Source of the DNA: a virus
Taxonomy: Duplodnaviria; Caudoviricetes
Reading direction: 5' to 3' (one strand)
Virus record (IMG/VR): IMGVR_UViG_3300031606_000339
Location: 1-64,000 of that record
Length of the DNA: 64,000 nt
This document shows, piece by piece, positions 1 to 42,294 of this stretch. Within the stretch, counting starts at the first letter, position 1. Every line of letters starts with the position of its first letter. A program made the translations under genes and the position numbers. The notes under the pieces were generated by a model, which saw nothing but the letters and a program-made list of their open reading frames with translations, ran no database searches and had not been told where the DNA came from.

Positions 1-539
1 ACCCGATGAACCCCCTTGCGCGTTATTATTTGGCTGATTTCCGTTACCCGATGAACCCCCTTGCGCGTTATTATTTGGCTGATTTCCGTTACCCGATGAA
101 CCCCCTTGCGCGTTATTATTTGGCTGACGCCCGAACGGAAAACTCACCCTTCCGTAAGCTGAACGAGGTAATCTCAAATTAATTCTTTGGTAACGTGCTG
201 AACCCTGCCCCGATGCAGTGGCGGGAATCATTCGACTTACCCGTCTGCCATAAGCATAACCATTATTAATCCTTCGTTGCGTCCTCCCGCCCGTATTATT
301 TGGCTGATTTCCGTTACCCGATGAACCCCCTTGCGCGTTATTATTTGGCTGATTTCCGTTACCCGATGAACCCCCTTGCGCGTTATTATTTGGCTGATTT
401 CCGTTACCAGATGAACCCCCTTGCGCGTTATTATTTGGCAAATTTCCGTTACCAGATGAACCCCCTTGCGCGTTATTATTTGGCAAATTTCCGTTACCAG
501 ATGAACCCCCTTGCGCGTTATTATTTGGCTGATTTCCGT
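1..539. repeat. 45-bp coding tandem repeat in two blocks (1-127, about 2.8 copies; about 293-539, about 5.5 copies)
   Basis: Unit acccgatgaacccccttgcgcgttattatttggctgatttccgtt, head-to-tail with no spacers; 45 nt = 15 codons. Confidence 0.95.
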
Positions 540-603
540 AGGTTTGAGCATATAAAGCGTTTGCGCCCATCGCAAATGCTAATAGTAGGAGTCCCTTTTT
601 CAT
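1..603 (-). CDS. Secreted Asn/Gln/Gly/Ser-rich tandem-repeat protein, 3' end beyond window (not in the ORF track)
   Basis: Manual translation from ATG at 603: MKKGLLLLAFAMGANALYA|QTYG (Sec-type signal), then repeats of NQPNNNAQGGSSGNG, an Arg-rich unique block, then more repeats. No stop codon down to position 1. Confidence 0.85.
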   Translation of the reverse strand, partial: MKKGLLLLAFAMGANALYAQTYGNQPNNNAQGGSSGNGNLPNNNAQGGSSGNGNLPNNNAQGGSSGNGNQPNNNAQGGSSGNGNQPNNNAQGGSSGNGNQPNNTGGRTQRRINNGYAYGRRVSRMIPATASGQGSARYQRINLRLPRSAYGRVSFPFGRQPNNNAQGGSSGNGNQPNNNAQGGSSGNGNQPNNNAQGGSSG

Positions 604-640
604 AATGATTAAGACGCTAAAAATGTAATTATACTTCGCA

Positions 641-1105
641 TTATTGTTCGATGTTAAGATATATCTCTACTTCTCGTCTGCTTGCTTTCAAGAGAAGGTT
701 GTCGTGTTGATTTACATAAATGCTTGTGCCGTGCACAGATAAGCGAAAGAAGGCTGATACCGCTTCTGAGCCGTGGTTTATCCATTCAGGGCTTCGTACA
801 GTTGAACCCTCAAAACGGCCAAGGACATTCAAGTCTTTTATTTTATATATCCTTCCAGCCACAGGGCTCCCCACATGGTCGCTGCTAATGGAGTCGTCAA
901 TCAACAGGCAATGTGGCGGTAAAGGAAGGGGTAGCGGAGTCGGAGGCAAGACGCCAAAGGGCTGGAACTTCTCTGCCAAAGCTGAGTTCTCGTTAACGTC
1001 CATCTCGTTTAAGTCATTTGACACAGCGATGTCAGCGTTATTCTCCTTCAAGAAGAAGATTGTGAACTCTGAGCCGTCTTTAGGCAGTAATTTGCTTTTC
1101 TTCAT
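641..1105 (-). CDS. Hypothetical protein
   Basis: 154-aa ORF in the run of - strand genes. Confidence 0.6.
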   Translation of the reverse strand: MKKSKLLPKDGSEFTIFFLKENNADIAVSNDLNEMDVNENSALAEKFQPFGVLPPTPLPLPLPPHCLLIDDSISSDHVGSPVAGRIYKIKDLNVLGRFEGSTVRSPEWINHGSEAVSAFFRLSVHGTSIYVNQHDNLLLKASRREVEIYLNIEQ

Positions 1106-1457
1106 TTTTAAAATCCTCCTGTCTTGAATTAGCTTTAATGTATAAATTGTCTGGAGCCACAGTAAAGTATTTGAACAGCGCGGGACAAAGCCAAGCGTCT
1201 TGACCAGAAGCCGCCTCTTTGTACCAAGTTCCTCCTTCTACTTCTCCGCTACCGCTGCTTCTCGTTAAATGAAAATCAAATTCCGGTAAGCCGCTGTCCG
1301 TAAAGATTAAATTAAAGTTGCCGTACTTCTGAAACAATACAGAGCAGAGCATATCTGCGCCGCAGACTAATGGTTCCGCGTAGAGTTGTCTGGCTGAGTC
1401 GTCGAAGACCCATTGCCCGTTTACCGTGTAGGGTGATATTGCGTATATTGCGTTCAT
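1080..1457 (-). CDS. DUF6717-like protein
   Basis: Pattern I.PY...G.WVFDD...L..EP.V.GAD and WLCPAL.KYF...P..LY recalled for this family. Confidence 0.65.
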   Translation of the reverse strand: MNAIYAISPYTVNGQWVFDDSARQLYAEPLVCGADMLCSVLFQKYGNFNLIFTDSGLPEFDFHLTRSSGSGEVEGGTWYKEAASGQDAWLCPALFKYFTVAPDNLYIKANSRQEDFKNEEKQITA

Positions 1458-1491
1458 AATTTATCCTTTTGTTCTGTCTAGCGTCGTTTAC

Positions 1492-1632
1492 CTATATAAT
1501 ATTAAATAATTTAAGAAGAATGACTACCTGCAAAGTTAATGTGCAAAGACCCAGTAAGGTTCTTAGTAACTCCATTAAGTGATTGCATCTGTCTAGTTCC
1601 CTTTCGGTCTTTTGTAGCCAGCCTCTTACCAT
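1492..1632 (-). CDS. Small membrane protein (46 aa, not in the ORF track)
   Basis: MVRGWLQKTERELDRCNHLMELLRTLLGLCTLTLQVVILLKLFNII; directly follows a sigma70-like promoter. Confidence 0.6.
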   Translation of the reverse strand: MVRGWLQKTERELDRCNHLMELLRTLLGLCTLTLQVVILLKLFNII

Positions 1633-1638
1633 GTCTTT

Positions 1639-1667
1639 AATATAGGATATTTCTTAATAAAGGTCAA
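1639..1667 (-). promoter_or_regulatory. Sigma70-type promoter
   Basis: TTGACC-17 nt-TATATT, with ATG 7 nt downstream. Confidence 0.65.
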
Positions 1668-1668
1668 G

Positions 1669-2232
1669 CTAATTATCGTTTAATTCTCTTAGCCTTTTTC
1701 GGTACTCAAAGGTTGCCTCTTGATCATAAAGATACTGAATTAGATTTTTTTTGTCGATGGAATACCCTCTTTTTAGGAATTTGCGTAACCGTCTAACATT
1801 AGTGATAACCCACCTATCTGACTGCTCGCTTCTTATAAGTTTTTTTTCTTTTAGATGTTCAAAAAAATCTACATGATGAAAGAAGTTAAGCTCGGAATCT
1901 AGCGCAGCCGAGCAGACAGTGTAGTCAAAATTATCTATGCATTCTTGTGGGTTGTTTTCGGCTATCATTAAACCGTAAAGCTCATTAGCACCTCTTCCAA
2001 GCGTATAATGGTTTGGGTGTTTTTTTAGAATAGTAAACCCATTGCCAATAAGGAGGTTCTTAGCTTTTAATTGATCGCTAGAAGTTTTTAGAAAAAGATC
2101 TATATCATTGCGTTCTTCATTAAGAAAAAAATCTCTTATCGATCCACCAGCTATCCAACAATATATATCTAAATCGCGAAACTGGCTAAGATACTCATCA
2201 AAGTAGGTTTTTAATTCTTCAACACTCTTCAT
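1669..2232 (-). CDS. Nucleotidyltransferase (poly(A) polymerase / CCA-adding head domain-like)
   Basis: IAGGSIRD...DIDLF and FDYTV motifs. Confidence 0.75.
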   Translation of the reverse strand: MKSVEELKTYFDEYLSQFRDLDIYCWIAGGSIRDFFLNEERNDIDLFLKTSSDQLKAKNLLIGNGFTILKKHPNHYTLGRGANELYGLMIAENNPQECIDNFDYTVCSAALDSELNFFHHVDFFEHLKEKKLIRSEQSDRWVITNVRRLRKFLKRGYSIDKKNLIQYLYDQEATFEYRKRLRELNDN

Positions 2233-2840
2233 AATATTTTATTCATGAAAGAGCGCATCTGCCAGTGCGGTCTTACTTCTTTATCATCTTGAACTTGAAT
2301 TGCCATCATGGGATTAATTAGATACATTTTAAAATCATTTAGAAAATAAAAAACATCTATCTGTCCCTTTGAGTGTCCCCTGAAGGTCGAGTCGTCACCT
2401 TTAAAGGCTAGTATTTTGTCAAATGCGTTCCCATTAATAGCGTAAGCGTGGGTGAACCATAGTTTTACAGAGCATAAATTTTCTTCTATATCTTCGAGTT
2501 TTTCTTCTATTTTTCCCCCTAGATAAAAAAGCTCCCAATCATGTTTTTTAAGGTTTTCTAATGAATCTAATAAGTGCTTCATGTCCCCGCTAAGCATACA
2601 AAAGTCATCTTCAAATATAAATATATTTTTTACTCCTTCGCCTTTTGCTTTTCTAACGCACAATTGGTGAGATAGGAAGCAGCCAGTAATGTTCTTGCCA
2701 TTTTTGACTCCCTGAATGCGTTCCGTCCTGTCGTAAATACCTAGTAGCTTTAATTGCTTAACAGCCATTTTCCAGCGGAAGCTGTTCTCATCCATGCTTA
2801 TGCAGTAGATTCTATCAAAAAAATCAAATGGATTGTTCAT
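2229..2840 (-). CDS. Glycosyltransferase, GT25-like
   Basis: IYCISM..R, GCFLSH, IFEDD and THAYAI motifs. Confidence 0.8.
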   Translation of the reverse strand: MNNPFDFFDRIYCISMDENSFRWKMAVKQLKLLGIYDRTERIQGVKNGKNITGCFLSHQLCVRKAKGEGVKNIFIFEDDFCMLSGDMKHLLDSLENLKKHDWELFYLGGKIEEKLEDIEENLCSVKLWFTHAYAINGNAFDKILAFKGDDSTFRGHSKGQIDVFYFLNDFKMYLINPMMAIQVQDDKEVRPHWQMRSFMNKIL

Positions 2841-3574
2841 ACCTTGTAGTCTATTGTTATGAAATCTTTATGTATAAAATAAGCTTCATGAAGAATTCTG
2901 TTATATGGATTATCAACCCTAATATATCCATTGTCTTTTATTAGATTCGTAAGTTCCCTGAAGGTGGTTGCACCCATCTCAATAGACATGGCTTTGAATT
3001 TGTAGCGATCAAAGGGAAATACTTTCAAGATCTCAAGCTCTGATCTTTCGACATCTAAAGCGAGATAATCAATTAGAGCGGGAGCTTTGTGTTCATCTAG
3101 GACTTGGGCAAGCGTGGTCGTTTTTATTAAGAAGGACTCATGAGCGTCAGTGTCTGGGTTGGCATACCTCCTTCGGGTCTTGCTAAAGTTTTTCTTTATA
3201 CCACTGCATCCTTTGTATTCTTCGTATTCAATGAATTCTGTTTCTCCTTTAACTGAGTCGAGGCACGCGTTAATGCATTTGTCCCGTGGGCGATTTTCTA
3301 CACACTGTCTATAAAGTGCGGGAATGGGTTCAATTAGAATCCCGCTCCATTCGTAACCCCTCTCTAGTAAGTAGGTACAACCATATGCTCCGTTGTTCGC
3401 CCCACATTCTACATAAAATCCACCCGTCGCACCCTTGAACACCTCTTCTATAATCCAGACGTCATTGTGGGTTGGAACATTTTTAGAAAACTCAGAAACT
3501 CCGTCGATCCATAATGAAGGCTTAACACGTTCTGGCGGAATGTCCCAATCCCTTCTTCTGCTCATGTAATTCAT
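2837..3574 (-). CDS. FkbM-family methyltransferase
   Basis: FYVECGANNG, WSGILIEP and IDYLALDVE motifs. Confidence 0.85.
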   Translation of the reverse strand: MNYMSRRRDWDIPPERVKPSLWIDGVSEFSKNVPTHNDVWIIEEVFKGATGGFYVECGANNGAYGCTYLLERGYEWSGILIEPIPALYRQCVENRPRDKCINACLDSVKGETEFIEYEEYKGCSGIKKNFSKTRRRYANPDTDAHESFLIKTTTLAQVLDEHKAPALIDYLALDVERSELEILKVFPFDRYKFKAMSIEMGATTFRELTNLIKDNGYIRVDNPYNRILHEAYFIHKDFITIDYKV

Positions 3575-3627
3575 AAGGATTTATATATAAATCTTCTGGG
3601 CAATCCTTTGGTAGCTCTATCGCGCTT

Positions 3628-3804
3628 TTATTTGGTCGGTTTAGATTTGCGTTTTTTTGTCAGCTTAGATTTGTCTTCTTCGCCGTATTTCTCGCAAATC
3701 TTTTCCCAATCGCTAGTTTTATCCCCATATTTATAGGGGTTATGCGGATTCACTTTGTGGAGCGGCTTAATCGCGTATTGATGTTGGATGCTATTCGTCT
3801 TCAT
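3628..3804 (-). CDS. Small hypothetical protein
   Basis: Start moved to MKTNSIQHQ, immediately after the guaC stop. Confidence 0.55.
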   Translation of the reverse strand: MKTNSIQHQYAIKPLHKVNPHNPYKYGDKTSDWEKICEKYGEEDKSKLTKKRKSKPTK

Positions 3805-3805
3805 T

Positions 3806-4963
3806 TTAATTCCTTCCAAAAACTTCGTTGGATTGTTGAGTGACCCGCACAAACGTGGCGCATTTAGGCATATCTTTTAAGTCTCTTGCGCCGATATAAG
3901 TACAGGTTGAACGCAATCCACCCAGAATGCTTTCGACGGTATTTTTAATGAATCCACGATGTTTTATCCTTATTGTTTTTCCCTCTGAGGAACGATACTT
4001 CGCGACACCTCCATGATATTTGTTCATAGCTGTGTCGGAACTCATGCCGTAAAATGTTTTATATTTCTCTCCGTTTACTTCTTCCTCTTGTCCTTCTGAT
4101 TCAGTATGACCTGCCAGCATCCCGCCCAACATAACAAAATCAGCACCAGCACAAAAGGCTTTGGCCACGTCGCCAGCACATACGCACCCACCGTCAGCCA
4201 TAATATGCCCACCAATCCCATGAGCAGCATCCGCGCATTCAATGACTGCGCTGAGTTGAGGGTAACCAACACCAGTTTGAATACGAGTAGTACAGACAGA
4301 CCCGCCGCCAATACCCACTTTAACAATATCTGCTCCACTTAATAATATCTCCTCTGTCATTTCGCCAGTGACAACATTACCCGCAATGATAATAAGCGCG
4401 GGGTGTTCGTCTCTGACTCGTTTAATAAAATCACAAAACCTTGATGTATATCCATTGGCTGCATCAATACATACAAATCTATTCCAATGAAAATTCCATT
4501 GAATGTCTCTGAGGTAATCTACATCATCATAATTATTTGGGTCATACTTGATGCCAATAGAAGGACAGAGATGGTCGTAAATTCTAGTTTGCCAATTCTT
4601 TGCTCCTCGTTCGTATTTCCAGTTCTTAGAGTTAGCTTCCTTGCTTTCTTGCGTTTTGAAAACCCCGTAGCCATCCAGCTTATGTAACCATCTCTTTGCG
4701 TCGTTGTGCTTGCTAATGCAAGTCAACATATGATGTTGAGCAAGAGCCTTGGCCGTTTCAAACGTGCCAACAGTATCCATGTTTGAGGCAACGATCGGAA
4801 CGCCTGTCCACCCGTAGGACTCGGGGTCAGAGCCTTCGCCACCAGCATTCTTAAATTTAAAAGTACGCATCAAGTTAACATCCTTACGGGAAGTCAACTC
4901 GGAACGCTTGGGGCGTAAGAGAACGTCCTTGTAGTCTAACTTTATTTCTGGTTCAATTCTCAT
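3806..4963 (-). CDS. guaC: GMP reductase
   Basis: [46 protein letters not shown] and GGLRSTCTY motifs. Confidence 0.93.
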
Positions 4964-5268
4964 CCCTTCCAATTTTTTTGCGGCTGTTCTAGGTCGCTGT
5001 CCTTTGTATAGTCTACAAAAATTTCTTCGCCCCGCTTTATTTCTCTTATACTAAATAGCTGCTTGTACCTTACTCCGAATTCATTTTCTATAGTTTTTAT
5101 TTTGCAATTTTCATTCATAATTGAATGATTATACAAACAGTTTGGCGTTATATTTATCCAACCCCAGTCCCTATAAGCATGAGTAATATGAATAAAGGTT
5201 TTCGAGGGGATGTTCTCCGTAGCTATTAAGCCACTCTTGTCGCAAGAGCTTTTATCGTATTTGACCAT
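4960..5268 (-). CDS. SET-domain protein
   Basis: GLIAT..I, YNHS...N and I..GEEI.VDY SET signatures. Confidence 0.75.
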
Positions 5269-5938
5269 TGTTTATTGAATTGGTTCTGCTTTGGCCACCC
5301 GATAGACTCGGACGAAACACAGGAGGGTTTACCAATCTATTGGGGTTGATTCTAAAAGTACGATAATAAAAATTAGTTGGCTTTGAGATGTCTTTACGCA
5401 TAAATACTACGCCATAATCCATTACGGTATAGGTAACCGGATAATCAAAAGACATAACGCATATATCCAAAACCTGCTTTAAGGTGATGTTGTGAAGAGG
5501 TACAGATAAACCCTTAATTTTAATCTGCTGCCTATTTCCTACGGCTAACGGGGCGGGAAGGAACAAGCCCAGCATTGGCGGCACTCCCAAGCCCGGAAGA
5601 GCACCATTAGGTTGCGGGGTCTGAGGAATCTCATTTCTCATATTAGGCTGCTGTGGCAGTCCCGTTATTGGGTCAACTCCAACCTGAGGAACGGCTGGAG
5701 TAACCTGCGCGGGTTTATTTATATTTTGATTAAATATAAAGTTTATACCCTTCCCTTTGCTATCAAGAGATAGCCTATACAAAATAGGCATAACTTCCTC
5801 AATGGTGAAGTGGTTAAGCGGTTCTAGCTTCTCTACTAAAGTAGAATCGAGTCTACTCCGCACTTCTTTTGACGTTTGGGGAGATGCGCCCATCATAGGG
5901 ACTACCAACAGCAGCGAAATAATTATATTCTTCTTCAT
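5252..5938 (-). CDS. Exported protein resembling the N-terminal periplasmic part of a secretin (no beta-barrel)
   Basis: Signal peptide; GINFI, Pro-rich DPITGLP linker, ITLKQVLD, YTVMDYGVVF and YRTFRINPN, recalled from Verrucomicrobia-type secretin N-termini. Confidence 0.5.
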   Translation of the reverse strand: MKKNIIISLLLVVPMMGASPQTSKEVRSRLDSTLVEKLEPLNHFTIEEVMPILYRLSLDSKGKGINFIFNQNINKPAQVTPAVPQVGVDPITGLPQQPNMRNEIPQTPQPNGALPGLGVPPMLGLFLPAPLAVGNRQQIKIKGLSVPLHNITLKQVLDICVMSFDYPVTYTVMDYGVVFMRKDISKPTNFYYRTFRINPNRLVNPPVFRPSLSGGQSRTNSINNGQIR

Positions 5939-29343: not shown

Positions 29344-29829
29344 TTACTCCAGTTTAAAAGAGCCGTTGCTTGAAAGGTCTACGGGTTTCTTGCATGAAAG
29401 GTCTTGAACCTGATCGGAGCTACCGTACCCGTCCTCTCCCCTTTCGGTTGGAGAAAGGTCGTCGGTTTCTTCCCACTCTATCGGGTGACATTTTTCTATG
29501 ATTAGCTGCGCTACTTTCGAGCCTTCGATGATGTGAGCGACCTCCCGCGAAAGGTTAATTAGAACCACGCCCACTTCTCCCGTGTAGCCTGAGTCAATAA
29601 CTCCAGCGAGCACATCTAGCCCCTGCTTGACTGCCAAGCCGCTTCGCGGAGCTACCCTTCCGTAATATCCCTTGGGGATTCTTACCCCAATTCCCGTTTT
29701 AATCACCTTCCTTTCAAGGGGTCTGAGGTAATTGTCCTCTGTTGAAAACAAGTCGTAACCAGCGTCCGAGTCATGCGCTCGCTCTGGGAGTTTCGCTTCC
29801 GGAAACATTTTTTTAATTTTAATATTCAT
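29344..29829 (-). CDS. dut: Trimeric dUTPase
   Basis: AGYDL, PRSGLA, GVIDSGYTGE, AQL and RG..GYGSS motifs. Confidence 0.95.
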   Translation of the reverse strand: MNIKIKKMFPEAKLPERAHDSDAGYDLFSTEDNYLRPLERKVIKTGIGVRIPKGYYGRVAPRSGLAVKQGLDVLAGVIDSGYTGEVGVVLINLSREVAHIIEGSKVAQLIIEKCHPIEWEETDDLSPTERGEDGYGSSDQVQDLSCKKPVDLSSNGSFKLE

Positions 29830-29851
29830 CGTGCGGGGTCGTCTCGTGTCT

Positions 29852-30301
29852 TTAACCTATCTTAATTAATTCTATATTATAGAAGTCAAAAATTGATTTT
29901 GCGAGCGTGTCTCTGCGGTACTCTTCTGCGTACACCACTTTACTTACTCCGTAAGCAGCTATCATTGTCGCGCAGGAAGAACAAGGTAAAAGAGTTGATG
30001 CCAAGGTGTCAACTTCTCCTCTAGAGCACAGGGATAAACAGTTCGCCTCTGCGTGAATCATGTAGACCCTGCGGCTATCCCTGTCATCCCAGAAGCCCTC
30101 ATCATCGACGTTCTTGCCTGAAGCAAGTCCGTTATACCCCAAAGCAAGAACCATGTGCTTTTCGTTCAAGGCACAGGCTCCGACTTTTTGAAATGGGTCC
30201 TCGCTTCTTTCTGAAGCTGTCGCCGCCAAGTTAAGGGCGTACCGCTCCCAGCTCAACCTATTCCCATCTGTGTTTTTGCTGCCGCTTGTACTCATCGACA
30301 A
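29852..30301 (-). CDS. dCMP deaminase
   Basis: RSEDP..KVGA, GYNG, HAEAN and PCSSC motifs. Confidence 0.9.
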   Translation of the reverse strand: MSMSTSGSKNTDGNRLSWERYALNLAATASERSEDPFQKVGACALNEKHMVLALGYNGLASGKNVDDEGFWDDRDSRRVYMIHAEANCLSLCSRGEVDTLASTLLPCSSCATMIAAYGVSKVVYAEEYRRDTLAKSIFDFYNIELIKIG

Positions 30302-30389
30302 GGTCGCCTTCAGTCTTAGACCAAGGGTACTTTACAAAAAGTCCCGTGAAAAAATACAATATAATTGCGGCGACGATTACCATCGGTAA

Positions 30390-30647
30390 TTAGCTAGTGG
30401 TTTTTTTAGCGTAAACCGACTTAGGTCTGCCCATCTTAGGTTTAACTCTTTTGACCAAGGTCAATTCGCCCGCCTCAACAGCCTTGTTGATTTTGGAGTG
30501 CACCGATACTCTAGAGAGCGAGCTTCCCATGCTTCTCGTCACCTCCTCTGCGGTGAACTCTTCGTCTGGCCAGTTCACGTTGACGGGCTTGCGCCCTCTC
30601 GGCTTTAGGGTCTTCGGTTGGTTGGTTTCTGTTGTGGTTGTACTCAT
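30390..30647 (-). CDS. Small winged-helix DNA-binding protein
   Basis: RGRKP, FT..E helix pattern, GRPK..Y wing. Confidence 0.65.
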   Translation of the reverse strand: MSTTTTETNQPKTLKPRGRKPVNVNWPDEEFTAEEVTRSMGSSLSRVSVHSKINKAVEAGELTLVKRVKPKMGRPKSVYAKKTTS

Positions 30648-30656
30648 CTTAGCTCT

Positions 30657-30722
30657 AGCATAATGCCTTATTAAACTTTCGTCAAAACTTTTTTTTGATT
30701 TTCTTAATATTTCTGCTACAAT
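30657..30722. promoter_or_regulatory. Back-to-back sigma70-type promoters at the strand-switch point
   Basis: - strand TTGACG(30685)-17-TATGCT(30657); + strand TTGATT(30695)-16-TACAAT(30722) with an upstream TG. Confidence 0.7.
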
Positions 30723-30729
30723 GAATCAC

Positions 30730-31191
30730 ATGACTGTTTTAGAGGCTAATATTAAACTTTTTTGCTGGTTTCAAGAAAACAATTGCTTTGAGCCCAATAA
30801 AAATATGCTAGAGCTACTGGTCGTAACCGACTGTCCCGAAGAGGATAAGGCTGCGATTCTGTGTGCTCTAAGAGAACTGGAACAAATGGGGTGCATAGCT
30901 TCTCAGCCGGTTGATGAAAGAACCTATTACGTACTCAAGAAGGACTTCGCTGCGGCCGCTGAGCAAAAAGTAGAAATAACTGGATACACCGCAGACATGC
31001 TCGCGGGGTGTCTGAATCATTTTTGTGACAAGATAGGCGACTTCAAGGATCAGTGTGACCCCGCAAACATCAAAGAGTCCGACATTAGGAACGCCATACT
31101 AATCATGCAGCACTACTACAAAATCGAACAGTCCATGTCTGAAGATATTTCTACACTCCCGGGCTTGCCGCCTGATCTTGAGGACGACTAA
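30730..31191 (+). CDS. Hypothetical protein
   Basis: ORF track; start set to the ATG downstream of the -10 box. Confidence 0.65.
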   Translation: MTVLEANIKLFCWFQENNCFEPNKNMLELLVVTDCPEEDKAAILCALRELEQMGCIASQPVDERTYYVLKKDFAAAAEQKVEITGYTADMLAGCLNHFCDKIGDFKDQCDPANIKESDIRNAILIMQHYYKIEQSMSEDISTLPGLPPDLEDD

Positions 31192-31198
31192 AAAACTA

Positions 31199-31227
31199 TT
31201 GACTCCAAAACAAAACGAACTTAGCCT
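31199..31227 (+). promoter_or_regulatory. Sigma70-type promoter of the large ncRNA
   Basis: TTGACT-17 nt-TAGCCT with no ORF downstream. Confidence 0.7.
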
Positions 31228-31233
31228 AAAGCC

Positions 31234-31641
31234 AGTTCTTTGTTAGAGTGATGACATTATAGCGCGGAAACTGATAAGTTCACCTCAAGCCCGTAAAAAG
31301 GCTCCAATCAAGAAGGTCACAAGACCTCACGTTACTTCGGGAGCGCGCGGCGTCCGAGATTGGATGGATATTTATATCAACCAGAGACTTCATCCCCCCT
31401 AAAGGGAAAAGGCTGGCAGACATAAAACCAAGAATAAAGTCCCATCACTTGTTGCAAAGACGAATTGAATACTTCTGGAAGGATGTTGCTCGTGAGCAAG
31501 TAACTCGGGGATAACGGGTGAAAGTGAAGGACTAAAGCGGGAACGCCTTCGACGCAACTAAGAATTGTACATTCTTAGAGAGGGAACCTATGTTCTTAAG
31601 CCTCCATCTAAGGGAAAAATAAAAGGCTGGCAGACAAAAAA
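31234..31641 (+). ncRNA. Putative large structured ncRNA (about 400 nt), family unrecognised
   Basis: ORF-free stretch with its own promoter and many nested helices, e.g. 31247-53/31443-49, 31303-09/31358-64, 31314-27, 31384-90/31437-42, 31486-99, 31558-78. Twice-repeated AAAAGGCTGGCAGACAWAAAA. Confidence 0.7.
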
Positions 31642-31679
31642 CTCCTTGATTCTAGCTCTTCCAAGGCTATATATAAAAT

Positions 31680-32477
31680 ATGATATCTTTAAATGATGCT
31701 GACAACCCAACCTTAACCCCCGACGAGATGAGGGACGGCACCAAGCTGTTTGTGGCGACACCTTGTTTCGGTGGTAATCTAGCCTACGAGTACGTAAACA
31801 GTCTTTTGGAGCTCCTTTACGTTTGCATGACTAACGGGGTCAATTCAGAGATTCATTTAGCAGCTAACGAAAGTCTTATCCCGAGAGGAAGAAACCACAT
31901 GGTTTCAGCGTTCATGGCTTCAGAGTGCACCCATATGATTTTTATTGATGCAGACATACAGTTCAAAGCTATGGACATCATGAAGATGATAGCCAAAAAC
32001 AAAAACATTATCGTCGGAGCTTACCCGCTTAAGTCCATGCCACCTGAATACGTCGTAAACTTAAAAGAAGAAGACGCTAAGGCTGACTCAGGGCTAGAAG
32101 TTATGGAGGTTCTAGATGCGGGTACGGGATTTATGATGATGAATAGGGGAGTCTTTGAGACAATGAAAGAAAATTTCCCAGAACTGCACTACACATCGGA
32201 CCTAGAGAGGGGATACCTGCTTGGCGAACAGATAAAAGACGAAGAATTGATGAACAGGCTCAAAGATAATCTCTATAGCTTCTTCGATACGATGCACGAC
32301 AAGGAAGACAACAACGCATACCTGTCTGAAGATTACGCGTTCTGCAGAAGATGGCAGAAGGTCGGGGGCAGGATTTGGCTTGACACTACTATAAATTTAA
32401 ACCATATTGGGAGGCATGCTTATCACGGCAACGTATCTCACTTACAGAATATGATTTCCTCCGAAGCTAACAAGTAA
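31680..32477 (+). CDS. GT-A fold glycosyltransferase-like protein
   Basis: FIDADI, AGTGFM and LSEDYAFC motifs. Confidence 0.75.
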   Translation: MISLNDADNPTLTPDEMRDGTKLFVATPCFGGNLAYEYVNSLLELLYVCMTNGVNSEIHLAANESLIPRGRNHMVSAFMASECTHMIFIDADIQFKAMDIMKMIAKNKNIIVGAYPLKSMPPEYVVNLKEEDAKADSGLEVMEVLDAGTGFMMMNRGVFETMKENFPELHYTSDLERGYLLGEQIKDEELMNRLKDNLYSFFDTMHDKEDNNAYLSEDYAFCRRWQKVGGRIWLDTTINLNHIGRHAYHGNVSHLQNMISSEANK

Positions 32478-32478
32478 A

Positions 32479-33162
32479 GTGAACTTTCACAGAGGCTTTT
32501 CTGAAGAGGTCAAAATCATTTCGCGAGACCCGCTGATTGGTTTAATTGATGACTTAATTTCTAGTGAAGAGTCCGACTTAATAGTCCGAGAAGGCGCACG
32601 CCTGCTAACCAGAAGCAAGATGGCAAGCCCAGATGGAGAACTGTTTTATGGAAAGGAAAGGACTTCTAGCTCTGCGCTGCTTGCGGGCTCCCCCGATTTA
32701 GAGAGTAAAGTTAAGGGCATCATCGGGAAGGGAATTAAAAGGCACTTCTTTTTTCGCGATAGTGAATTTGAAGACCTGCAAATGGTCCACTACAGGAATC
32801 AGGAAAAATTTAACTGCCACCACGACTCAGACCCCCCGATGAAAAGACTTTGTACCATATTAATCTACTTAAGTGATGTCACGAACCTGCAGCAACAGGG
32901 AGGAGCCACCATCTTCCCGCCCATAAAGACAGCCGTTGTACCAAAGAAAGGTCGAGCGCTCGTCTGGTATAACTACACCAACGATGGGGTATATGACGCC
33001 AGAGTGATGCATATCGGCCAAGCTATTAAGAACTTTGAAAAGTGGGCACTAAACGTGTGGATTCAAGACAACACTCTAGAGTTTCCCACGGATGATTTTG
33101 TGAGATCTGAAAAAGAAAAAAACCGCACAGAAAGCCTAGAAGGGACTAAGGTCATATTATGA
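32479..33162 (+). CDS. Prolyl 4-hydroxylase-like 2OG-Fe(II) oxygenase
   Basis: RTSS, HHD, LIYL, GGAT.F, H and KW..N.W motifs. Confidence 0.88.
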   Translation: MNFHRGFSEEVKIISRDPLIGLIDDLISSEESDLIVREGARLLTRSKMASPDGELFYGKERTSSSALLAGSPDLESKVKGIIGKGIKRHFFFRDSEFEDLQMVHYRNQEKFNCHHDSDPPMKRLCTILIYLSDVTNLQQQGGATIFPPIKTAVVPKKGRALVWYNYTNDGVYDARVMHIGQAIKNFEKWALNVWIQDNTLEFPTDDFVRSEKEKNRTESLEGTKVIL

Positions 33163-33773
33163 AGGCTAAAGTCATAGGTATATCGGGAGTAGCCGGCTCG
33201 GGAAAAGATTTATTTTACTCTTTGATAAGTAAAAAAATCAACTGCAAAAAGTTTGCTCTGGCCGACCAGCTTAAAGAGGAGTGCAGGGCACACGTCTTAG
33301 AGTCATACGGGGTAGACATCTTGAACTGCTCTAGAGAACAAAAAAATTTAGTACGCCCATTTTTAGTGGGGGCTGGGCTAACTAGAAGAAAGATGACTAA
33401 CGGTAGGTACTTTGTGGAGAAGCTCGAGCCAAAAATTAAAGAATTTATTTATAATTATTACTGCGTAAAAGGTAATTATGACTCTGTTTACCCCTGCGTG
33501 ACTGACGTCAGATATAGCTCGCACGAAAAAGACGAGGTCGGCTGGCTAAAAGGCACGATGGGCGGAACCCTAGTTCATATAACAAGATTCGATTATACTA
33601 AAGAGGGGAAGGTAAACGTGCCCCCAGCAAATGAAGAAGAAAAGAGACATGACCCCATCTTAAAGTCTCAGGCAGACTATATACTGGAATGGGAAACAGC
33701 AAAGGGCTCTCAAGAACAAATGGAAAACAGTTTATCGAGGTGCTTGGATGATTTTGTAAATTTTATGAAATAA
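33159..33773 (+). CDS. Deoxynucleoside monophosphate kinase-like protein
   Basis: GISGVAGSGKD, ALAD.LK, R..L...G and TDVRY motifs. Confidence 0.75.
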   Translation: MKAKVIGISGVAGSGKDLFYSLISKKINCKKFALADQLKEECRAHVLESYGVDILNCSREQKNLVRPFLVGAGLTRRKMTNGRYFVEKLEPKIKEFIYNYYCVKGNYDSVYPCVTDVRYSSHEKDEVGWLKGTMGGTLVHITRFDYTKEGKVNVPPANEEEKRHDPILKSQADYILEWETAKGSQEQMENSLSRCLDDFVNFMK

Positions 33774-33777
33774 AGCC

Positions 33778-33806
33778 TTGACTGCCCACTAATAACAACT
33801 TATCTT
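33778..33806 (+). promoter_or_regulatory. Sigma70-type promoter
   Basis: TTGACT-17 nt-TATCTT. Confidence 0.6.
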
Positions 33807-33816
33807 CGAGCTAGAT

Positions 33817-34122
33817 ATGAGTGAAAACACTACTAACACACAGAAAACGGAGTGGCAAAACCGAGAACTCGGCGCGCTATGGAAACGGACCTCAAAGAAC
33901 TCTGGCCAAAAATATTTGGCTGGGCATGTTAAAGAGGTTGACGAACACGGAGTGGAGAAACGCACAAAAGTCGTAATCTTCGCTAACCGAAACAAGCAGG
34001 ACGGAGAGAGGACTCCCGACTACCGCATCTACGAGTCCAAGGACGACCCGCAGAAACAAGAAGAAAAGCAGGCTAATCCTGCTCCCACTGACACGGGGGA
34101 GGCACTTGAAGACACCTTGTGA
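33817..34122 (+). CDS. DUF736-like protein (possible ssDNA-binding)
   Basis: ELGALWKR.S..G.KYL.G and PDYRIY; acidic tail. Confidence 0.65.
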   Translation: MSENTTNTQKTEWQNRELGALWKRTSKNSGQKYLAGHVKEVDEHGVEKRTKVVIFANRNKQDGERTPDYRIYESKDDPQKQEEKQANPAPTDTGEALEDTL

Positions 34123-35201
34123 AGTCTTTTTCTCTCAACCTACCCATTAACCAAGTCTCCTTTGGACAAGTCTCAACGACTTTCCTTAGGGGATTTTACG
34201 ATAGGAAGATAGAACCCCCTTTGTTTAGCATCGGGGGGACTATCGACCTTTCGTCTCAAAACCAAGACCAAAAATTTTTTGAATGGGTAGCTAGCCTAGC
34301 CCAAAAGTCTTACTCAGAGCATAAAAGATCTAACCCTACCCTGAAACTTTGGCACCTCAACGGAGGCTTGGAGTCATTTAGCAGAGAGCACTATTTGCTT
34401 ACATTTTACGAGCTAGATGAGCCCACGAAATCAGAACTAAACGTAGCCAAGTCTTGCGACAAATTAATTTTTACTAATAATTATTCGAAAGAAATATTTA
34501 AGAGCTTTAATGTAGACTCTCATGTAGTTCCCCTCGCTTTTGATAGGTATAACTTTGGAGTCACCAATAAGAAATATTTTGACGATGATAGAATAGTTTT
34601 TAACTTATGCGGCAAGTTCGAAAAGAGAAAGCACCACGAGAAGATTATTAGGGCTTGGGCTAAAAGATTTGGAAACGACAACAGGTATTTCCTACAATGC
34701 GCTGTATACAATACGTTCTTGAACGAAGAACAGAACAAAGAACTGTTTGCTAGGTCTGTCGATAATGTGAAGTATTACAATATCCACTTCTTGGGGTTCA
34801 TGCCTCAAAACGTCCTGTACAATGACTACCTAAACTCTGGAGATATAATTATCGCAATGTCAGGAGGGGAAGGATGGGGACTGCCTGAGTTTCATTCTAT
34901 TGGGCTAGGCGCTCACGCTGTAGTTTTAAATGCTCACTCCTACAAGGAATGGGCGACCGAAGAGAACTCGGTATTAGTTGAGCCGTCAGGGAAGATAGAC
35001 GCATACGATGGAATCTTCTTTAAAAAGGGTACAGAATTTAACCAAGGCAGGATATATGACTTCCACGAAGACGAATTTATTGCCGCCTGCGAAAAGGCAA
35101 TAGAGAATCATAAATCAAATCCAATCAACGAAAATGGTCTCAAGATACAAGAGAAATTTTCTATTGAAAATAGTGTTGACAGGATTTCAGAACTTCTTTA
35201 G
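34119..35201 (+). CDS. GT-B (GT4-like) glycosyltransferase
   Basis: GKFEKRK and S.GEGWGLP..H motifs. Confidence 0.85.
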   Translation: MKSFSLNLPINQVSFGQVSTTFLRGFYDRKIEPPLFSIGGTIDLSSQNQDQKFFEWVASLAQKSYSEHKRSNPTLKLWHLNGGLESFSREHYLLTFYELDEPTKSELNVAKSCDKLIFTNNYSKEIFKSFNVDSHVVPLAFDRYNFGVTNKKYFDDDRIVFNLCGKFEKRKHHEKIIRAWAKRFGNDNRYFLQCAVYNTFLNEEQNKELFARSVDNVKYYNIHFLGFMPQNVLYNDYLNSGDIIIAMSGGEGWGLPEFHSIGLGAHAVVLNAHSYKEWATEENSVLVEPSGKIDAYDGIFFKKGTEFNQGRIYDFHEDEFIAACEKAIENHKSNPINENGLKIQEKFSIENSVDRISELL

Positions 35202-35364: not shown

Positions 35365-36633
35365 ATGAAAAACGAAGTACAAAGAGTCCTGAAGTTCAGA
35401 ATCTATCCAACTGATTCTCAAAAAGCTATTCTACATCAATGCTTTAATGCCGCAGTAGAAATCTACAACAAATGCTTGGAGATGAAAAAGAACGACTGGG
35501 ACGCTAAGAAAAAACTGTACAAAGAATCAGGCTCAGAGGACAAGTTTTCTAAATGGTTAAAAGACAACGACCTGTCCATTATGTCTGTCTTCGAAACCAA
35601 AAGAGAAATAAAAAACTGGAGAAAAGAATTCCCTTGGTTAGAAGAGTGCGCCTCTCAGCTACTCCACCAAGCGGCGCTTCACCTAGACACCGCTTTCAAG
35701 AACTTTTTCAGGCGGCATAAAGCCGGAGAAAAACCGGGCTTCCCCAAGTTTAAAAGTAAAAGAGATGGCAAGAAGTCATTCGCCGTAGACACAGCAAAAC
35801 TAAACTGGGACAACTCCACGCTCCAATTACCTAAGTTCCCTGACGACATTAAGGTCAAGATTCATCGCAAGAAATTGACCATAAACAAAAAGGACATAGA
35901 ATTAGAGAAAGCAATCAAAGAGGGTAAGGCGAAAACAAAAACCATTACCGTCAGCATAAATCCCAGCGGAGAATACCACGCAGCAGTGAATGTGACCTTA
36001 GCGGGTAAAGAACCTGCCAAGAAAAAGTTTGGAGAAAAAAACACCGTAGGCATAGACCTAGGGACCACAACGTTTGCGGTACTGTCCGCCGTTAAGGGAG
36101 TCAGAAAGAAGATCGGAAACCCAAGGCACTTCAAGGCTCTTCATAAAAAATTAGCAAAAGAACAGCGCAGGATGTCTAGGAAAAAACTCGGAAGCGAGAA
36201 CTACAAAAAGCAAAAAATTAAAGTAGCTAAAATTTGGCAGCAGATTAGTAATTGTCGAAACGACTTCCTCCACAAAACGTCACACGGCATTATCTCAGAC
36301 AGCAAGATTAACGCCGTTGCTCTTGAGACGCTTTCCATTCAAGACATGCAACAATCCAACAAGTACCTAGCTATGTCTATTAGCGACGCCTCGTGGTTTG
36401 AGTTTAAAAAGAACATGGAGTACAAAGCCGAGAGGCAAGGGAAAACCATCATAAGTATTGGCAGGTTTGAACCGACCACAATGACTTGTTCAGTTTGCGA
36501 TTTTAAAATGGAAAAGAAACTGAACCTTAGCATTAGAAAGTGGGAGTGCCCGGAGTGTGGAACCACCCACGATAGAGACGAAAACGCCGCAGACGTGATT
36601 AAAAAAGTTGCGCTCAGAGACTATACTGACTAG
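35365..36633 (+). CDS. tnpB: TnpB RNA-guided endonuclease (stand-alone, RuvC D-E-D intact)
   Basis: KFRIYPT, A..NFF...GFPKFKSK, GIDLG, ALETL, CSVC...CPECG, HDRDENAA. Confidence 0.95.
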   Translation: MKNEVQRVLKFRIYPTDSQKAILHQCFNAAVEIYNKCLEMKKNDWDAKKKLYKESGSEDKFSKWLKDNDLSIMSVFETKREIKNWRKEFPWLEECASQLLHQAALHLDTAFKNFFRRHKAGEKPGFPKFKSKRDGKKSFAVDTAKLNWDNSTLQLPKFPDDIKVKIHRKKLTINKKDIELEKAIKEGKAKTKTITVSINPSGEYHAAVNVTLAGKEPAKKKFGEKNTVGIDLGTTTFAVLSAVKGVRKKIGNPRHFKALHKKLAKEQRRMSRKKLGSENYKKQKIKVAKIWQQISNCRNDFLHKTSHGIISDSKINAVALETLSIQDMQQSNKYLAMSISDASWFEFKKNMEYKAERQGKTIISIGRFEPTTMTCSVCDFKMEKKLNLSIRKWECPECGTTHDRDENAADVIKKVALRDYTD

Positions 36634-41718: not shown

Positions 41719-41726
41719 GAATAGAC

Positions 41727-41924
41727 ATGAAAACACTAGTAACACTAACTGTAGGGACGCTGCTTTTCGCGGCGTCAGGTTGTTCGAGTACAATGACAAT
41801 TGGACCTAACGCCAATAAAGATGGCTACCTAGGTGCATCAGCTTCCACAACGGGAGTCAGTGTCACCGTTCCATTCGTTAAGGCTGAATCAGCCGTAACG
41901 GAAACGACCAAGAAAAAGAAGTAG
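41727..41924 (+). CDS. Small lipoprotein
   Basis: MKTLVTLTVGTLLFAASGC lipobox. Confidence 0.7.
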   Translation: MKTLVTLTVGTLLFAASGCSSTMTIGPNANKDGYLGASASTTGVSVTVPFVKAESAVTETTKKKK

Positions 41925-41946
41925 GCACCCCCTAATTCCACACTCA

Positions 41947-41981
41947 CCCCTAGAACTGAGTCAGTTCTGGGGTTTTTTTTT
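41947..41981 (+). terminator. Rho-independent terminator
   Basis: CCCTAGAACTG-AGT-CAGTTCTGGGG followed by T9. Confidence 0.85.
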
Positions 41982-42011
41982 GAGTAAATAAATAGTAATA
42001 AATATTAAAAA

Positions 42012-42245
42012 TTATCCGTCTTTTATTTTCCTTTTCTGCCTGCCCAGAAAGCCTTCGGTTATTTTGAAGACTTCCCCGCATTTCTCGCACTTCATCGACA
42101 CCTTACATTCATAGTTGTCCTCCCTGCATTCTTTGTCTTTACCAAAAAATGTTTTTTTATGACCGCACTGACTTTCCTTTACTTTCTCAGAATATAAGCG
42201 AGACTCTAAGCTCGGCGGGCAGTATGGGCATGCATAAAAATACAT
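42012..42245 (-). CDS. Small zinc-ribbon protein
   Basis: CPYC...CEKC. Confidence 0.6.
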   Translation of the reverse strand: MYFYACPYCPPSLESRLYSEKVKESQCGHKKTFFGKDKECREDNYECKVSMKCEKCGEVFKITEGFLGRQKRKIKDG

Positions 42246-42252
42246 ATACAAT

Positions 42253-42286
42253 AAATTACACTTCTTTAAGAAACAAAGTGTATTTA
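42253..42286. promoter_or_regulatory. Second divergent pair of AAGTGTAWWT motifs
   Basis: AAGTGTAATTT on - (42263-42253) and AAGTGTATTTA on + (42276-42286). Confidence 0.65.
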
Positions 42287-42294
42287 AAAGAGAG

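Follow-up and report, generated by a model that had tools for sequence, protein, structure and literature searches.

Which product, if any, is encoded by the longest ORF-free stretch of the phage DNA analysed here? The window, i.e. the whole stretch of 64,000 nt under analysis, covers the initial 64 kb of an uncultured virus record of 100,489 bp with an estimated completeness of 63%, and the public runs containing the stretch are seawater and ice metagenomes. No near relative was found among cultured phages, the top nrdA match being 45% identical. When ORFs of at least 60 aa in any frame are counted, the longest gap spans 31192-31679 (488 nt), in agreement with the original prediction, and the runner-up amounts to 236 nt; with an ORF threshold of 80 aa the same gap ranks third. 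It had further been predicted that the gap gives rise to a large multi-domain phage RNA outside the known families, and this proposal is borne out by negative Rfam searches, purifying selection, covariation and a conserved promoter position.

Leftward genes end at 30647 and rightward genes begin at 30721, where a block of ~45 kb opens that runs in a single direction from 30.7 kb to ~76.4 kb. It carries the glycosyltransferase-like gene, a 2OG-Fe(II) oxygenase, a dNMP-kinase-like gene and more glycosyltransferases as well as nrdA, nrdB, a DnaB-like helicase and a DNA polymerase, and the structural genes come after it on the opposite strand. The gap is flanked by two genes of this block:

30721-31191, + strand: upstream neighbour, an acidic orphan ORF of 156 aa without family match
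31680-32477, + strand: downstream neighbour, a glycosyltransferase-like protein of 265 aa (phrog_1574, weak Anp1 match)

The structural model of the 156-aa upstream protein (pLDDT 70) displays an N-terminal winged helix followed by helices, and Foldseek returned weak similarities to MecI/BlaI and MarR repressors (E 0.006-0.04); peptide patterns revealed no relatives of this ORF in viral contigs. The divergent gene at 30390-30647 (- strand) codes for a conserved basic protein of 76-85 aa with a weak sigma-70 region 4/HTH match. Together, the divergent HTH gene and the winged-helix ORF look like an early control region. Genes for a dUTPase, a dCMP deaminase, the 2OG-Fe(II) oxygenase, the dNMP-kinase-like protein and glycosyltransferases cluster around the gap (29344-35201), which is consistent with a DNA base hypermodification pathway. 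Furthermore, two operon genes are separated by an inserted tnpB gene (35365-36633, OrfB_IS605 with a Cas12f-like TNB domain); this gene represents a recent insertion in the window lineage, because L100-L105 have no gene at that place. After nrdB, inside the rightward block, a strong intrinsic terminator with an 11-bp stem and a run of 9 T is located at 41948-41972, within a 576-nt gap (41719-42294) where promoter-like sites come next. Distant phages share a synteny of dCMP deaminase, the 76-85-aa HTH gene on the other strand, sometimes an ORF of 135-156 aa, a gap of 420-520 nt and the glycosyltransferase-like gene, and two relatives of the window (L272 and L273) have no gene of the 156-aa type called between the divergent gene and the gap product.

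Comparison with relatives indicated how strictly the gap is kept. L099, a Tara contig with 86% identity in the downstream protein, has a gap of equal length in a 3.9-kb alignment, with 94-100% nucleotide identity at 31250-31449 and 31500-31549 against a coding background of ~76%, and the identity falls to 40% at the end of the upstream ORF. Strain X17, obtained from another run, differs at 2 of 326 nt in the gap, compared with 26 of 463 and 40 of 774 nt in the flanks. Judged by these alignments, the gap is under stronger purifying selection than the flanking protein genes. Single-base indels between the gap copies of the window and L099 exclude a coding frame.

Carriers were searched with nhmmer and blastn on all fetched loci and by a 22-mer scan of viral contigs; for the glycosyltransferase-like protein 799 relatives were found, and the contigs of the nearest ones were examined. 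Eleven distinct carriers of the same RNA, hereafter type A, were obtained: the window, L099, L116, L266, L272, L273, L276, L277, L278, the divergent L275 and X17. Eight sister lineages (L100, L101b, L102, L105, L186, L187, L188 and L270) hold a different RNA of ~330 nt in the same gap, type B, and neither type was present at about 150 loci at which the homologue of the downstream gene is more distant. The RNAs are located as follows:

31234-31640 of the window, + strand: structured RNA type A, ~407 nt, both ends predicted
2575-2945 of L100: type B RNA of a sister phage
2606-2935 of L102: type B RNA of a sister phage
1014-1390 of L187: type B RNA of a sister phage

R1, a covariance model built on the type A core, recovered the window with E 1e-24 (102 bits) and the divergent L275 with E 1e-21 (90 bits). 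Neither nhmmer in both directions nor R1 gave a match between the types, and we consequently regard A and B as distinct RNAs that occupy one locus. In the downstream-protein tree, whose backbone lacks resolution, A and B carriers are not separated; this tree is compatible with a single origin of the RNA types as well as with swapping.

To evaluate the fold, nine type A sequences were aligned with plain MAFFT and scored against a curated structure. Thereby, 80.4% of the cells were paired, compared with 36-48% for slid controls; 26 pairs were changed on both sides (controls 5-15) and the covariation score was 0.245 (controls 0.07-0.10). None of 500 shuffles equalled the observed cells paired, compensatory cells or covariation score and only one had as many compensatory pairs as observed; further pair types were no more numerous than in the shuffles (456/500). 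The + strand of the gap codes for a structured RNA of a new family, and the type A fold consists of two domains (31237-31461 and ~31480-31604) which are tied by a pseudoknot:

31237-31461, + strand: domain 1, closed by P1 and P2
31237-42/31456-61, + strand: P1, UCUUUG/CAAAGA; G-C replaced by U-A in L276, as read from the sequence
31248-53/31443-48, + strand: P2, GUGAUG/CAUCAC; 5 of 6 pairs compensatory, 100% of cells paired
31269-72/31277-80, + strand: P3, among the well-supported helices
31284-31367, + strand: conserved core P4-P5-P6 (alignment A7)
31289-91/31300-02, + strand: hairpin P4, GCC/GGC, in the conserved core
31303-09/31358-64, + strand: P5, UCCAAUC/GAUUGGA, fully compensated in L275
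31314-18/31323-27, + strand: hairpin P6, fully compensated in L275
31438-42/31529-33, + strand: pseudoknot of AGUCC with GGACU of domain 2; 97.8% of cells paired, 2 pairs changed on both sides
31480-31549, + strand: core of domain 2, 92-97% paired, 5 pairs compensatory
31480-82/31547-49, 31485-87/31542-44 and 31489-93/31537-41, + strand: long helix P10 of domain 2
31503-07/31515-19, + strand: hairpin P11, inside P10
31558-65/31571-78, + strand: 3' hairpin P12, in the 3' hairpin region 31558-31604
31580-83/31601-04, + strand: 3' hairpin P13, in the same region

The long helix P10 encloses hairpin P11, a GAAAG segment and the pseudoknot strand 31529-33. The 26-nt junction leading from P6 to the 3' strand of P5 (~31328-31353) is invariant except for one R position in 10 of 10 sequences. 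P12 and P13 scored poorly in the MAFFT alignment, and compensatory versions of both are directly readable in L116, L273, L266 and L272. All features that define type A, i.e. the P4-P5-P6 core, the junction, P1/P2, the AGUCC/GGACU pseudoknot and the twin motif described below, are present in the window.

About half of the helices proposed in the original prediction were confirmed by compensatory change. The predicted AGTGATG/CATCACT helix corresponds to P2, and the UCCAAUC/GAUUGGA helix, the AGGUC-ACAA-GACCU hairpin and the CUAAGAAU/AUUCUUAG helix are likewise backed by compensatory change, which for GAGG/CCUC is partial. The remaining helices gave way to other pairings or were lost in relatives: GAGACTT/AAGTCC is not supported, AGUCC covarying with GGACU in the pseudoknot instead; in place of GTTGC/GCAAC, CAAAGA pairs with UCUUUG in P1; and the hairpins TTGCT-CGTG-AGCAA and GCG-GGAA-CGC (with its GNRA loop) are replaced by the pairing of CUCGU (31489-93) with GCGGG (31537-41). 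The TCGG/CCGA arm is often disrupted in relatives, and of the TTAGA/TCTAA closure just 3 bp are retained.

Single-sequence folding was uninformative (z = -0.72 for the + strand, which is chance level, and z = -2.14 for the - strand), so that the evidence for structure is comparative and not thermodynamic. The pairs of type A comprise 64 G-U versus 33 A-C, which identifies the + strand as the RNA strand. These observations also bear on the idea that the region acts purely at the DNA level, as a replication origin or a set of operators at the strand switch, without RNA function. The cumulative GC skew has its minimum at 30-32 kb, near the strand switch at 30650-30720, a repeated 22-mer could serve as an iteron or operator pair, and two putative DNA-binding proteins flank the region. 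However, the skew tracks gene direction too, the repeat is not palindromic and occurs just twice, and the G+C content is above what is expected for an unwinding element. Compensatory changes maintain helices whose G-U pairs can be read on a single strand only. The substitutions thus preserve RNA pairs specific to that strand, for which reason we consider a pure DNA element very improbable.

The RNA was then compared with the catalogued families. A cmscan of the window against Rfam 15 (including GOLLD, ROOL, OLE, HEARO, introns, RNase P, tmRNA, riboswitches and T-box) at the gathering threshold yielded two tRNAs only, which upholds the predicted position outside known families. At E up to 10, the only match in 31000-31900 was a chance snoRNA-like one outside the RNA; L099, L100, L102 and L105 gave nothing at E up to 1, and ARAGORN found no tmRNA. 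Furthermore, blastn of the window RNA and the type B RNAs against 50,697 cultured phage records returned no match, and a 22-mer of the invariant core is absent from 185,579 prokaryote genomes; no match was obtained either for a 21-mer chosen where conservation is confined to the window clade. A 15-mer of the repeat produced 90 single matches in viral contigs, which were judged to be due to chance. The conserved strings do not occur in the paper full text searched. By these searches, the type A RNA matches no catalogued RNA and is a new family.

Its closest analogues in kind are GOLLD (RF01998), ROOL (RF03087), OLE and raiA, which are likewise several hundred nt long, rich in helices and pseudoknots, strongly conserved, phage-borne and without assigned function. 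None of them matches type A in cmscan even at E up to 10. GOLLD and ROOL are larger, and unlike them type A does not lie beside tRNA genes and has a twin terminal motif. The 10,006 candidates of the IMG/VR screen (Fremin et al. 2023, PMC10690425) share with it the origin from uncultured viral contigs, the covariation and the position upstream of genes.

Two further identities are suggested by the neighbourhood and by one of the predicted helices, namely the partner RNA of the TnpB encoded nearby and a group I intron remnant. The tnpB gene starts 3.7 kb downstream of the RNA, and a bulged P7-like helix can be drawn at 31384-31442. The P7-like helix (GAGACUU/AAGUCC) is uncompensated, however, and fails covariation because AGUCC pairs with 31529-33 instead; neither an interrupted exon or ORF nor a match to group I (RF00028), HEARO or any other Rfam family was found. 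An omega-RNA or IS200-IS605 RNA was rejected as well, since the RNA does not adjoin tnpB and RNA-carrying relatives have no TnpB at the corresponding place. Both identities are largely refuted, and we give them next to no credence.

How the RNA is expressed was examined at its borders. The prediction had placed a promoter of its own in front of it:

31199-31227, + strand: sigma-70-type promoter with -35 TTGACT (31199-31204), 17-nt spacer and -10 TAGCCT (31222-31227); start expected near 31234

The sequence is present, and the -35 box TTGAC(T/G/C) and the 17-nt spacing are kept in ~12 lineages (L099, L116, L266, L272, L273, L276, L277, L278, L102-105, L100 and L186) in which the spacer sequences have diverged; the site was not listed by the consensus scanner because its -10 box agrees with the consensus in no more than 3 of 6 positions. 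The promoter proposed for the next gene fared less well:

31646-31673, + strand: possible weak promoter of the next gene, TTGATT, 16 nt, TATATA

TTGATT is present in the window and unlisted by the scanner; L099 has TTGCTT, the site is absent in L116, L272, L273, L276 and L277, and no convincing promoter was found between the RNA and the next gene in L116 and L277. No terminator is predicted between the type A RNA and the next gene in the window, and in six type A relatives the ATG of the next gene comes directly after the RNA. Regarding the transcription that the prediction entails, one RNA run yielded contigs which within 30700-32500 lie only on 31118-31268 and 31354-31553; such RNA-library contigs give neither ends, strand nor level and may stem from DNA carry-over, and the uncovered parts are not evidence of absence. 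The two contigs hint at expression.

Type B has a different layout at its 3' side. A promoter is followed by the RNA of ~330 nt, a G+C-rich hairpin of 14-17 bp with a U run and the same glycosyltransferase-like gene, and 3' of this terminator a promoter for the next gene is listed by the scanner in L187 and discernible by eye in L100. The arrangement of a small RNA gene ended by an intrinsic terminator is thus seen in type B (L102, L187), not in the window. The type B fold is well supported, with 90.6% of cells paired (slid controls 43-55%), 23 compensatory pairs (controls 2-9) and 54 G-U versus 14 A-C.

The type B layout is one reason to consider a stand-alone, trans-acting structured RNA in the manner of GOLLD and ROOL, which would be transcribed or processed as a discrete molecule of ~330-420 nt and could serve in early infection as an RNP scaffold, decoy or ribozyme whose twin motif binds a partner co-evolving with the phage lineage. 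The promoter is kept even with a gene upstream, the type B RNA ends in an intrinsic terminator with, in L187 and by eye in L100, a separate promoter thereafter, and nearly all nucleotides of 31250-31449 are constrained within a pseudoknotted fold, as in ribozymes and RNP RNAs. RNA-library contigs fall on the RNA and none on the downstream gene, a weak indication, and large phage-associated RNAs without assigned function are a precedent (bioRxiv 10.1101/2024.12.08.627333). The missing type A terminator and the adjoining ATGs speak against it, as does the fact that we found no partner, target or catalytic motif and, in the window, no complement to the 12-mer of the twin motif. A stand-alone molecule is a serious possibility, held with somewhat less than even confidence.

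The succession of promoter, conserved fold, terminator (B) or start codon (A) and metabolic genes is also that of a small-molecule riboswitch of the nucleotide/glycan operon, in which case one ligand would be recognised by two aptamer classes, A and B, and the 26-nt junction could be the binding pocket. Yet 330-420 nt is far above the known aptamer size, there is no Rfam riboswitch match, and the separate promoter after the type B terminator in L187, and by eye in L100, does not fit. Furthermore, by inspection no antiterminator of a stability comparable to the 14-17-bp terminator is available. A switch between the type B terminator and a GGGG/CCCC antiterminator was rejected, the alternative being far too weak by inspection. 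We regard a riboswitch as quite improbable.

A further feature is the 22-nt direct repeat at 31407-28 and 31621-42, which is part of a longer repeated module (AACC..CUUNA..C-rich..CUAAGGGAAAA..GGCUGGCAGACA), one copy closing each domain:

31399-31422, + strand: twin motif copy 1, CUAAAGGGAAAA followed by the 12-mer GGCUGGCAGACA (31411-31422); ends domain 1
31608-31636, + strand: twin motif copy 2, CUAAGGGAAAAAUAAAA followed by the 12-mer GGCUGGCAGACA (31625-31636); ends domain 2

The motif is A-rich and apparently single-stranded, and it occurs in the window as exactly two exact copies and nowhere else. Copy 2 ends 44 nt before the next ATG in the window and sits 0-11 nt before the downstream start codon in L272, L273 and L276. 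Type B contains two similar A-rich copies, one on each side of the terminator. Across the type A genomes the 12-mer varies, with both copies of one genome staying alike:

Window: copy 1 GGCUGGCAGACA, copy 2 GGCUGGCAGACA
L116 clade: copy 1 GGACGGUAGCCA, copy 2 GGAC(G/A)G(U/C)AGCUA
L266: copy 1 GGCUGAUAACAA, copy 2 GGCUGACAACAA
L272: copy 1 AGCUGGCAGUCA, copy 2 AGCUGGCAGUCA
L276: copy 1 AGCUGGCAGUCA, copy 2 AGCUAACAGUCA
L275: CCGGCAGA twice, 155 nt apart

That the two copies change together suggests a shared partner which differs between lineages. No complementary site that is consistent across the genomes was found within the RNA or nearby. The 12-mer has the core Y-G-G-Y-A-G, and its positions 3 and 8 are always pairable. 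Resemblances of the motif to lambda boxA/boxB, a type I-F CRISPR repeat, Shine-Dalgarno and CsrA sites and the T-box were considered and all dropped because each fits only some of the sequences.

The nutL and nutR sites of lambda co-vary as two copies, and the twin motif resembles them in this respect. Like the nut, put, EAR and ops/JUMPStart elements, type A closely follows a promoter and heads a very long operon that runs in one direction, and the strong terminator following type B recalls antitermination elements. On the other hand, type A is 3-6 times larger than lambda nut, HK022 put and Bacillus EAR, and it differs from the lambda and ops systems in that no N-, Q- or NusG-like gene was found with it, the phage records being incomplete. 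The core of the 12-mer (YGGYAG) recalls the ops core (CGGTAG), a resemblance that we treat as a lead only, and the glycosyltransferase-rich operon is reminiscent of the targets of RfaH (PMC5995543, PMC6775461). The ops sequence GGCGGTAG(nnTG), which is located in the long leaders of polysaccharide and other long operons, recruits RfaH (PMC5995543, PMC6775461); it is read on the non-template strand of the transcribed leader, where residues 4-7 lie in a small hairpin and RfaH contacts G5 and T6 (PMC5995543). The window (GCTGGCAG) agrees with GGCGGTAG at 5 of 8 positions and has C at position 6, where RfaH contacts T, so membership of the ops/JUMPStart group with RfaH recruitment is not supported for the window; the clade of L116, L273, L277 and L278 (GACGGTAG) agrees at 7 of 8 positions. 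No match to PF02357 (NusG-like) was found in the three incomplete phage records searched (G000, 63% complete, and the records containing L277 and L278).

Taken together, we tentatively lean towards a cis-acting leader that governs the progress of polymerase or ribosome into the ~45-kb block, which is slightly favoured over the stand-alone RNA because of its placement at the head of the block, the absence of a terminator in type A together with the abutting ATGs, the type B terminator flanked by the motif, and the terminator at 41948-72. The host sigma-70 polymerase would transcribe the RNA from the conserved TTGACT promoter, and the RNA would serve the rightward genes as a leader acting in cis. 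Its folded body would present the twin motif as docking sites for a factor, and the docked factor may decide on the entry of polymerase or ribosome, be it through antitermination, through attenuation or by controlling initiation at the first gene. Some observations do not fit readily. The downstream gene has a promoter of its own in type B and perhaps in the window, for which a separate gene is the better explanation; the known cis antitermination RNAs are much smaller; the window 12-mer does not have the T contacted by RfaH; no NusG-like gene was detected in the records searched; and no conserved alternative pairing able to form a switch was found. The glycosyltransferase-like gene is the first gene 3' of the RNA in every carrier with a readable downstream gene, and in all carriers read the RNA is co-oriented with it and directly upstream, the upstream neighbour changing; this adjacency is weak evidence because the synteny of the whole region is conserved.

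A bolder version can be formulated, which we consider rather unlikely: the folded body with its two ops-like, lineage-specific docking sites would load an elongation factor or bind polymerase, and would constitute a new RNA class that reprograms host transcription. If so, one early promoter would drive the ~45-kb replication/glycan block past terminators, and A and B, with their unrelated bodies, would have arrived at the twin-motif device by convergence. On an equal footing, the RNA may be a new large ribozyme. To our knowledge, bacterial and phage RNAs above 300 nt with complex conserved folds are rare, and those of known function are ribozymes, guide RNAs or large RNA assemblies.

In ocean and ice phages of numerous samples the type A family is conserved more strictly than the protein genes around it, and it sits at the control point of the genes for replication and DNA/glycan modification. 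Type B, which occupies the same slot and shares the twin motif, represents a natural experiment on function. Should the motif recruit an elongation factor, phages would have a new route to run very long operons.

Three minor observations were made on the loci of the relatives. The locus L280 (positions 1-5568, corresponding to G000 82001-87568, - strand) contains an ORF, incomplete at one locus end and no shorter than 1856 aa, with CAAGG-rich DNA repeats; weak matches of this locus to the RNA core model were rejected as spurious, arising from these repeats. L101 displays at 2340-3010 a run of N together with two partial RNA copies of different subtypes, and probably represents a scaffolding join of two strains. 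Finally, L275, the most divergent carrier, has at 350-480 (- strand) a Lys/Arg-rich ORF of 43 aa, preceded by a terminator and located directly upstream of the RNA.
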